Source: a virus
Lineage: Duplodnaviria > Heunggongvirae > Uroviricota > Caudoviricetes
Reading direction: 5' to 3' (one strand)
Length of the DNA: 37,320 bases
IMG/VR virus record: IMGVR_UViG_2617270964_000016
Location: 1 to 37,320 of that record
Part shown: positions 6,980 through 7,665 of the stretch, piece after piece
How positions within the stretch are numbered: the first letter of the stretch is position 1
Layout: every line of letters begins with the position of its first letter
Program-made: the position numbers and the translations under genes
The notes under the pieces: model-generated
Told to the model about the DNA's origin: nothing
Seen by the model: the letters and a program-made list of their open reading frames with translations, nothing else
Database searches by the model: none

Positions 6980-7593
6980 TTTGCTGCTCCTCATCATATC
7001 GACCCTGCAAGGTCGGTTGGTTTCTCCACAAAACAGAGAAGAACACCTGCGGTGGCAGCCGCCCGGATGGATTGGGTTATGAGCCCGTCGTCCGGTGATG
7101 CTCTTCTCTGTTTTGTAAAAAGAGCGGTACCAGCCGGAAGCAAGTGTACAAACTGGTACCGCCAAAGCAGTGGCTGTTGTGGTGACCGGTGCTGATCTCC
7201 GGCTTGCGGTTATTTCAGACTCTCACGGGCGTTTAATTGCCCCGCCGAACAGCTCTTTTCCGCAATAGCTGCAATGTCTTTCGCGCATCAGCCTGCGCAT
7301 TCACCACAACGCTGAGAGCACTTAGCCAGTTACGGCACCACACTTTGTCGCGGTTCCATAAATGCCCTCATCGTTGCACCCTGGTCTCTTCCCAGGTGTC
7401 AAACCGAACCGCCACGCTGGTTAGGCGTCTTATCAGCATCATCATTGACTTGCACATTCCGGCTACCTGGTTTGTTTGCCCGAGCAAGGAGTGGATTGTC
7501 CCCTTTAACGTCCCCAGACCGCTAACGACGCATGTGCCATACGCCGTGTTACAACCAAATTTTGTTTAATCTTGCCTGTGACATGTTTCTTTT

Positions 7594-7627
7594 AGATACA
7601 TTATGTATCTCAAGGGTACATTGTCAA
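7594..7627 (-). promoter_or_regulatory. PL-like early-left promoter (-35 TTGACA, 16-nt spacer, -10 CATAAT) overlapped by a palindromic operator AGATACA-TTA-TGTATCT
   Basis: Minus-strand reading: tacTTGACAatgtacccttgagataCATAATgtatct. Perfect 7-bp inverted repeat at 7594-7610 overlaps the -10. Confidence 0.5.
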
Positions 7628-7631
7628 GTAT

Positions 7632-7653
7632 AAAAAAACCTGCCGAAGCAGGT
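7632..7653 (-). terminator. Rho-independent terminator of the repressor transcript
   Basis: Minus-strand stem ACCTGC-TTCG-GCAGGT followed by TTTTTT, directly after the repressor stop at 7666. Confidence 0.55.
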
Positions 7654-7665
7654 TATAAATATTGA

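Follow-up and report, generated by a model that had tools for sequence, protein, structure and literature searches.

A candidate repressor-controlled non-coding RNA locus in the early-left leader of an N-less lambdoid phage

How does a lambdoid phage without an N gene control its early-left operon? Such phages are common, and the answer is otherwise guessed to be 'put-like'. The question is raised here by a tailed phage represented by 37,320 nucleotides (nt) of DNA (the window; IMG/VR record IMGVR_UViG_2617270964_000016), in which a gap of 614 nt separates a PL-like leftward promoter from the ATG of the first early-left gene at 6979. A preliminary description, made from the sequence alone, held that some 500 base pairs (bp) of this leader are untranslated and contain no N-like gene, and suggested RNA-based or Q-like antitermination, a small RNA (sRNA) or a micropeptide instead. 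The present analysis provides coordinates and structural models for two conserved RNAs, modules A and B, which lie in that order between the promoter and an intrinsic terminator, tL0. On balance, we favour the view that the stretch from PL to the first gene is a repressor-controlled non-coding RNA locus, the terminator of which throttles the early-left genes.

Two structured RNAs in the leader

Module B folds as a cloverleaf of a closing helix (P1), two hairpins (A and C) and an arm of variable length (Table 1). Near-invariant segments of 23 and 22 nt flank a variable middle, as seen in the aligned 40-nt core of unrelated phages; the core (~7283-7323) is ~90% identical in Klebsiella, Erwinia, Salmonella, Edwardsiella and Cronobacter phages of differing types. 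The exact 23-mer (GTGAATGCGCAGGCTGATGCGCG) is found in at least 119 IMG/VR contigs and in 30 species genomes, which span Gamma- and Betaproteobacteria, an alphaproteobacterial metagenome-assembled genome and Candidatus Magnetaquicoccus. The structural model was tested on 67 distinct sequences with a linker substituted for the variable arm: 94.6% of cells are paired, compared with 27-50% when the partners are slid. Changes on both sides of a pair occur in six of the nine P1 pairs and two of the five pairs of hairpin C, with exchanges at four P1 positions (UA/GC, GC/UA/AU, UA/GC/CG and GC/AU) and in hairpin C (CG/AU/UA). The covariation score was reached by none of 500 shuffles, and minimum-free-energy folds of short and long versions of B give an identical four-way junction.

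The two hairpins are also complementary in their loops: the central bases of loop A, GCUGA, can pair with UCAGC within loop C (AGAUCAGCA). Because the search pattern dictated loop A, a separate search was made for sequences with another second base in it. A change of this base from G to A is matched by a C to U change in the partner at three loci, and a change from G to U by a partner A once; an A.C mismatch is left at two loci. The compensatory changes support a loop-loop contact.

Module A, which is nearer the promoter, has a 9-bp first hairpin, a long-range helix of CGGUCUGG with CCAGGUAGCCG, two more helices, and a last hairpin whose loop, GAAGAGA, is invariant. The RNAalifold consensus of eight diverse sequences has 30 pairs in six helices; nine of the 30 pairs are altered on both sides, and 96.7% of cells are paired, against 27-40% in slid controls. 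Besides the GAAGAGA loop, the stretches GGAAUGUGCAAG, UCACCA and GGCGAUNCGGUGUGAC are invariant and unpaired. An exact-word scan with CCAGGTAGCCGGAATGTGCAAG found at least 119 contigs. The homologues fall into four groups: lambdoid phages resembling the window; P1-like phages, with A between trnI and ban; Uetakevirus phages (phiV10, SPN1S, Tyrion, BUCT711 and 66FD), where it stands ahead of tRNA-Arg or B; and a diverged copy in the PL leader of mEp390, ~50 nt past a TTGACA-17-TACATT promoter. Their length differences are not multiples of three, which makes it unlikely that the small open reading frames (ORFs) annotated in A are real.

Neither module belongs to a credible family in Rfam, release 15, in E-value scans of 6400-8700 (both modules), 7100-7345 (B) and 7330-7600 (A). 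A gathering-threshold scan of the whole window found only C4 and isrK, both at places other than A and B. Searches with nhmmer and blastn found no second copy of A or B in the window, including the side of the rightward promoter (PR) and the late operon. Inspection for the cores of self-cleaving ribozymes (hammerhead, HDV-like, twister, pistol and hairpin), without a dedicated test, gave no match. Hairpin C (GCCGGAGAUCAGCACCGG, 7185-7203) aligns at E = 2 with the Rfam rydB model over positions 30-47 (GCCGGAGAUAAGCGCCGG), and in K-12 RydB (L281 3714-3781, minus strand) CCCC...GGGG encloses the matching hairpin. A B-type RNA may have left RydB as a remnant in the core genome, or the match may be due to chance.

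Could the leader instead encode a small protein, or be a decayed tRNA array or a set of recombination scars without present function? The AUG in the invariant GUGAAUG of B (in the 23-mer, 7283-7304, minus strand) encodes MRRLMR... and lacks usable Shine-Dalgarno spacing. The resulting peptides vary from 7 to 132 amino acids (aa), with nothing conserved past residue 6, and the insert lengths of B are spread over all three frames (31, 43 and 17 sequences). An N-like micropeptide, for which MRRLMR was the sole candidate, is thereby rejected, and module B is an RNA, not a protein. On the minus strand, ORFs of the gap with an ATG start have at most 25 codons, and the longest with GTG or TTG starts are at 7368-7487 (39 aa) and 7233-7343 (36 aa). 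The preliminary description was thus right that no minus-strand ORF is credible, while its ceiling of 25 codons holds for ATG starts only. The plus-strand ORF that it had pointed out (7237-7569, 110 aa) is present and has no coding support: it starts with TTG, has no PHROG match, and spans the junctions of A, spacer and B, where relatives carry different elements; its region is annotated differently in Ayreon and mEp460. Between PL and 6979 no conserved ORF, N-like arginine-rich gene or plausible coding signal was found, and the product of the first early-left gene, a homologue of SfV orf32 and mEp460_035, is not arginine-rich. The untranslated character of the leader and the lack of an N-like gene, both asserted before, are borne out.

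Decay could draw on the mosaic make-up of the leader, with modules common to many unrelated phages, and on spacer units that resemble degenerate tRNAs; a protein, such as an N-like arginine-rich peptide or the 110-aa product, could draw on the AUG within B and on the small ORFs annotated here in GenBank records. The compensatory changes in A and B, together with their near-invariant segments in distant hosts, argue for selection on RNA structure, and we regard decay or a protein as highly improbable. The 'hypothetical protein' ORFs mEp460_036/037 and Ayreon 0036/0037 are probably spurious.

Table 1. Features of the leader and its surroundings in the window
Feature	Position	Strand	Description
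Module B	7176..7310	-	135-nt four-way-junction (cloverleaf) RNA
Module B, closing helix P1	7302-7310 with 7176-7184	-	GUUGUGGUG paired with CACCACAAC
Module B, hairpin A	7283-7298	-	Preceded by AAU; GCGCA-GGCUGA-UGCGC
Module B, variable arm	7204-7281	-	31-177 nt among homologues
Module B, hairpin C	7185-7203	-	GCCGG-AGAUCAGCA-CCGGY; abuts 3' strand of P1
Module A	7364..7550	-	Conserved structured RNA of ~185 nt; nhmmer E = 8e-48
Spacer hairpin S	7314..7369	-	GAGGGCAUUUA paired with UAAGUGCUCUC, variable interior; pairing read from sequences
Intrinsic terminator tL0	7117..7163	-	GGCGGUACCAG / CUGGUACCGCU; 11-13-bp stem, 15-19-nt loop, CUUUUU
Long near-perfect hairpin	7022..7121	-	~25-32 bp, between tL0 and Shine-Dalgarno of first gene
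PL-like sigma-70 promoter	7600..7627	-	TTGACA, 16 nt, CATAAT; 11 of 12 consensus positions
Intrinsic terminator hairpin of repressor gene	7637..7654	-	AACCUGCUUCGGCAGGUU then UUUUUUU; also annotated in Ayreon and SfV
First early-left gene	6617..6979	-	120 aa, PHROG 204; ATG at 6979, GAGGAG Shine-Dalgarno
S24/cI-like repressor gene	7666-8340	-	PHROG 4
Cro-like gene	8431-8631	+	Part of lambdoid immunity region
CII-like gene	8663-9226	+	Part of lambdoid immunity region
Q-like gene (late antiterminator)	14784-15536		

A mosaic leader and its tRNA slot

The preliminary description had proposed a check of conservation across related prophages, and the leader is widely conserved. By blastn, parts of 6980-7600 match ~177 phage records, and 6980-7665 has a partial match in 2666 of 5426 complete E. 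coli genomes, about half of them, with at least 80% matched in 794; E. coli APEC 16-1068 has a leader of 100% identity. The leader folds more stably than its shuffles (z = -3.3). In mEp460 it is 99.5% identical despite a different repressor, which indicates that it is a module separate from immunity. The leader is itself composite: 6980-7165 is common to SfV, SfIV and ST64B; 7175-7323 to the P1-like phage RCS47, where it lies directly past tRNA-Thr; 7304-7547 to phiV10-like Uetakevirus phages; and 7383-7560 to the trnI-ban spacer of P1. The tRNA genes that accompany these stretches in P1-like phages and swi2 lie on the strand equivalent to the minus strand of the window, which is the one transcribed from PL.

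Close relatives carry differing cargos in a slot framed by GUUGUGGU...ACCACAAC. In Ayreon (L001 2725-2845, minus strand) the slot holds an unrelated structured insert without a match in Rfam, a third type of cargo. SfV (L231 1900-2500, minus strand) has an extra gene of 98 aa, orf33, with its own terminator, and then an element resembling the sRNA STnc100; in two other records (L044 and L124) a truncated module B is fused to the start of orf33. On these comparisons, cassette exchange has a hot spot in the PL leader. Two genes annotated as plp lie antisense to this kind of DNA: 'Plp' of RCS47 (L004 2175-2594, plus strand) overlaps the homologue of module B, and plp of P1 (L003 3846-4223, plus strand) overlaps tRNA-Thr. 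Both 'putative lipoprotein' genes may be a misannotated non-coding RNA array.

The slot of B is also one for tRNA genes. The closing helix of the spacer hairpin (GAGAGCAUU with AGUGCUCUC) recurs in other phages, and its 3' flank, CAGCGUU, leads into B in the window and into a tRNA in phiV10. The order in phiV10 is module A, a spacer ending in CAGCGUU, tRNA-Arg(UCU) starting with GUGGCAU, and a terminator. B starts with GUGGUGA where this tRNA starts, so that after the common CAGCGUU the first base of the tRNA corresponds to the start of P1. At the other end, B of L098 and L104 ends in CACCAC-A-CCA-GAAUCACGC, in register with the tRNA-Arg of phiV10 and sharing its trailer. The matching start, leader, register and trailer place B in a 'tRNA slot'.

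These likenesses have misled annotation at least once, almost certainly: in swi2, ARAGORN calls a 'tmRNA' (L008 1258-1632, minus strand; tag AKAVRLRKCSFRCGECAG) which spans B, the spacer and tRNA-Met, a call that we take to be false and caused by the tRNA-like ends. Separately, the trailer and terminator past one copy of B (L020 6563-6616, plus strand) match Rfam isrJ with 30.3 bits (threshold 37; E = 3.6e-4), and the 3' end of a B-type cassette may be the origin of the Salmonella island sRNA IsrJ.

It is conceivable that B is a tRNA-shaped mimic, cut by RNase P 5' of GUGG and trimmed of its 3' trailer, which serves as a decoy or ligand for a host factor that reads the acceptor, T-arm or elbow of tRNA, such as a tRNA-targeting defence nuclease. 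B has the topology for it, namely a cloverleaf in which hairpin C joins the 3' strand of P1 without an intervening nucleotide, and a contact of first and last loop placed where the elbow of a tRNA would be; the resemblance is topological only. The 5' leader, start position and 3' trailer shared with a real tRNA, and the exact 23-mer, whose presence in hosts among both beta- and gammaproteobacteria suggests that the partner is universal, point in the same direction. Co-oriented tRNAs are near B in a minority of loci: among the 119 listed, 17 have tRNA genes on the strand of B, usually 50-550 nt away, and four have them on the opposite strand only. Conversely, 86% of the listed loci have no same-strand tRNA in the surrounding DNA, CCA follows P1 in few loci, and B has neither canonical D-loop or T-loop sequences nor a known partner. 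ARAGORN finds no tRNA gene in the window, and the Rfam tRNA model has no match on B. We consider the mimic rather improbable.

Most copies of B lie 1-1.4 kb downstream of a same-strand repressor gene, that is, in the position of the PL leader; a second group stands in the late leader, ahead of endolysin and spanin genes. Clustering of the neighbouring genes gave generic immunity and lysis genes only, and no dedicated protein partner. In phages of the L053 type, B is preceded by a TTGACA-17-TACATT promoter, the inferred start of which lies 3 nt before that of B, and the terminator of the window comes after B; to judge by sequence, promoter, B and terminator form a compact unit there. Among distinct loci, 39 of 84 have a terminator-like hairpin within 160 nt downstream of B, compared with 52 of 425 control windows (12%).

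The frequent terminators bring to mind a riboswitch, in which B would be a ligand-sensing aptamer that controls the adjacent downstream terminator and gates early-left or late genes. Its junction and loops are highly conserved with one variable peripheral arm, it occurs in the 5' leaders of operons, and a terminator is present within 0-100 nt in many loci. However, the distance from B to the terminator varies widely, a tRNA follows B in place of a terminator in some loci, and the sequences inspected have no conserved alternative pairing between the 3' half of B and the terminators. We judge a riboswitch very unlikely.

Transcription of the locus and the fate of its RNA

The PL-like site is the top promoter-like site within 1-7700, and leftward transcription would start from it near 7593. 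The GenBank record of Ayreon annotates an equivalent pair of terminator and promoter. A palindrome at 7583-7621, detected by an inverted-repeat search, overlaps the promoter and may be its operator; PL and PR have no 9-mer in common that would indicate a shared operator, and a resemblance of TGTAC/GTACA half-sites is seen by eye only.

tL0 has a free energy (dG) of -21 kcal/mol (z -3.6) and is kept in SfV and Ayreon; a standard terminator scan misses it, since its loop exceeds 8 nt. A similar terminator ends the unit of A and tRNA in phiV10. In the window, tL0 lies just outside the interval of the preliminary description (7166-7665) and gives the leader the look of a self-contained RNA gene. 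The long hairpin that follows (dG -51 kcal/mol, z -7.7) is common to SfV, SfIV and ST64B, includes the U-tract of tL0 in its 5' arm, and is a possible RNase III processing site. Both tL0 and this hairpin were also picked up by the inverted-repeat search.

The reading that we favour would operate as follows. Transcription would begin near 7593 under control of the repressor, and A, the spacer hairpin and B would be made in this order before polymerase reaches tL0. Most transcripts would stop there as stable structured RNA, with trimming probable where B has its tRNA-like boundaries, whereas the fraction that reads through would carry the early-left genes past the long hairpin, where it is probably processed. 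In this manner tL0 would both set the RNA product and throttle the early-left operon without an N-type protein, and the A and B RNAs would act in trans. The orientation and unit character of the locus are supported by PL directly upstream and by the promoters ahead of B in L053-type phages and ahead of A in mEp390. Past tL0, the left operon has no strong intrinsic terminator before 1039-1066, so there would be no need for N, and no promoter-like site before 1147-1175, at its far end. Of the substitutes for N offered in the preliminary description, the small RNA has fared best, with two conserved structured RNAs in the gap, and Q-like antitermination applies to the late operon only, where there is a Q-like gene.

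Several points weigh against this reading. We looked for transcript data on this or homologous loci and found none, and no role can be assigned to module A. The early-left genes, which have no promoter of their own, would depend wholly on read-through of tL0, and antitermination predicts the same; the leakiness of tL0 is argued solely from its loop of 15-19 nt and short U-tract. The covariance model of STnc100, the prophage sRNA that B most resembles in architecture (see below), has no match at E <= 10 in 7100-7345 (246 nt), and the loops of B are near-invariant across phages of beta- and gammaproteobacteria, which a base-pairing sRNA would not usually show. The analogy of B to Hfq-dependent sRNAs may thus be wrong. 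Loops so nearly invariant in distant hosts speak for a conserved partner and not for a variable relationship of seed and target, and for this reason the tRNA mimic and a polymerase-binding RNA are kept as rivals.

A bolder proposal can be made. A and B would be two undescribed classes of phage RNA which act on core host machinery and not by seed pairing: B would be tRNA-shaped, matured by tRNA enzymes, and bind a conserved factor (a tRNA-targeting defence nuclease, RNase P or RNA polymerase) through its invariant kissing-loop 'elbow', and the promoter-proximal A would make polymerase processive through untranslated RNA arrays, as a second put-like antiterminator unrelated to put. We hold this to be possible but doubtful. 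Literature searches by sequence string and by topic (P1 transcriptomics, RNAs of tRNA arrays and tRNA-like anti-defence RNAs; large candidate lists such as PMC10690425 fell outside their scope) found no description of A or B.

Some features of the remainder of the window may be added. Genes resembling yfdQ and yfdR come after the 120-aa early-left gene, and a strong bidirectional terminator-like palindrome with a stem of 10-12 bp at 1039-1066 is the probable far boundary of the early-left operon. On the plus strand, isrK (9583-9659, 61 bits) and C4 antisense RNA (9684-9771, 81 bits) are matched at the level of the Rfam gathering thresholds, from which it follows that the early-right operon carries an RNA regulatory module like immI of P1 and that of Gifsy-1. 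Both matches, with a terminator at 9640-9653, fall within a 278-aa ORF (9223-10059; 'immunity region' in Ayreon), which is probably spurious at least in part. A non-coding late leader of 590 nt (15540-16130, plus strand) lies 3' of the Q-like gene and has terminator-like hairpins at 15642-15663, 15933-15954 and 16001-16017.

Comparison with known antiterminators and phage RNAs

In lambda, N and nutL occupy the position of the leader, between PL and the first terminator, and boxB of nutL has a GAAGA loop, which the GAAGAGA loop of module A recalls. The window differs in having no N gene, and the loop of A has 7 nt and is not a GNRA-like pentaloop; its size rules out a boxB. A UGCUCU string in the leader resembles boxA, which would suggest NusB-E. 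This idea was also rejected: the string upstream of B in many enterobacterial loci (UGCUCUUU) forms the 3' side of the spacer helix, and it is missing in GC-rich and most non-enterobacterial loci.

The put RNAs of HK022 and HK639 are a closer parallel, as structured RNAs just downstream of PL in N-less lambdoid phages. A and B likewise lie directly past PL and upstream of tL0, and nascent A and/or B might bind RNA polymerase and bring about read-through of tL0 and resistance to Rho, replacing N as put does; with put, passage through terminators depends on the zinc-binding domain of the beta-prime subunit. The left operon has no other promoter, A is usually the first element of its non-coding units, and A or B alone stands right after the same type of promoter in mEp390 and L053-type phages. 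The first hairpin of A repeats 15 nt of stem I of put, ACGGCG and CAUGCGUCG, including a G.U pair. A put-like RNA was suggested by Casjens and colleagues for the related N-less phage LLS (PMC12315714).

The differences are considerable. A and B are larger (~185 and ~135 nt, compared with ~70 nt for put), and the features essential in put (PMC9378689), namely G35, a duplex and triplex at the 5' side, and stem II, have no equivalent in the leader. An nhmmer profile built from putL and putR of HK022 and putL of HK639 has no match in 6980-7665. Its weak match elsewhere (15620-15663, minus strand, E = 0.04), opposite the first terminator-like hairpin of the late leader, is probably meaningless. HK022 has put after both early promoters, whereas the window has a single A and a single B, with no copy downstream of PR. 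Membership of the put family is ruled out by the null profile, the missing features and the lack of a second copy, and the put- or nut-like element anticipated in the preliminary description, for which it had suggested a scan of Rfam, is not to be found in the known libraries. Unlike put, A and B are found in unrelated phages as well, within tRNA arrays and in the leaders of lysis genes; B adjoins tRNA genes in phages without nearby immunity genes, and a terminator often follows it directly, with no evident target for antitermination. The left operon, moreover, has no further strong terminators to be overcome. We judge antitermination in cis by the RNA of A or B, in a put-like mode, to be unlikely.

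Stable RNAs other than tRNA are present in tRNA operons, as are RtT RNA in the tyrT operon of E. coli and the species 1 and 2 RNAs of T4. The locus resembles them in that a tRNA slot is filled by B, A comes after trnI in P1, and release from a polycistronic non-coding transcript is proposed. Neither module is related to RtT or to tRNA by sequence or in Rfam. The copy of module A between trnI and ban makes its role directly testable in P1.

The architecture of B is matched by STnc100 (RF02076) and PasD, prophage sRNAs of Salmonella and E. coli. The STnc100 consensus and B both have a closing helix of UGGUGAAU...CACCA, a hairpin of 5 bp with a 6-nt loop after AAU, variable middle hairpins, and a 5-bp last hairpin which abuts the 3' strand of the closing helix, followed by an intrinsic terminator. 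Both occur in non-coding leaders of lambdoid prophages. The STnc100-like element of SfV is at the exact position of B, between equivalent PL and terminator, and matches the Rfam model from end to end with 39.5 bits (gathering threshold 47; E = 2.7e-7). The loops of B are different, however, being mutually complementary and near-invariant, and B has spread far beyond Enterobacteriaceae. STnc100 and PasD were described from late-gene regions; STnc100 was detected by reverse transcription PCR (PMC12370729), and PasD is a base-pairing sRNA found bound to Hfq by RIL-seq (ligation and sequencing of interacting RNAs) and confirmed by northern blot (bioRxiv 10.64898/2026.05.13.724894). The locus is of a kind already known, among prophage leader sRNAs and non-tRNA RNAs of tRNA operons, with A unclassified in Rfam. 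B appears to be a deep and widespread variant of the STnc100/PasD architecture, beyond the reach of current models, and ties this orphan sRNA family to a wider group of cloverleaf RNAs in the tRNA slots of beta- and gammaproteobacterial phages.

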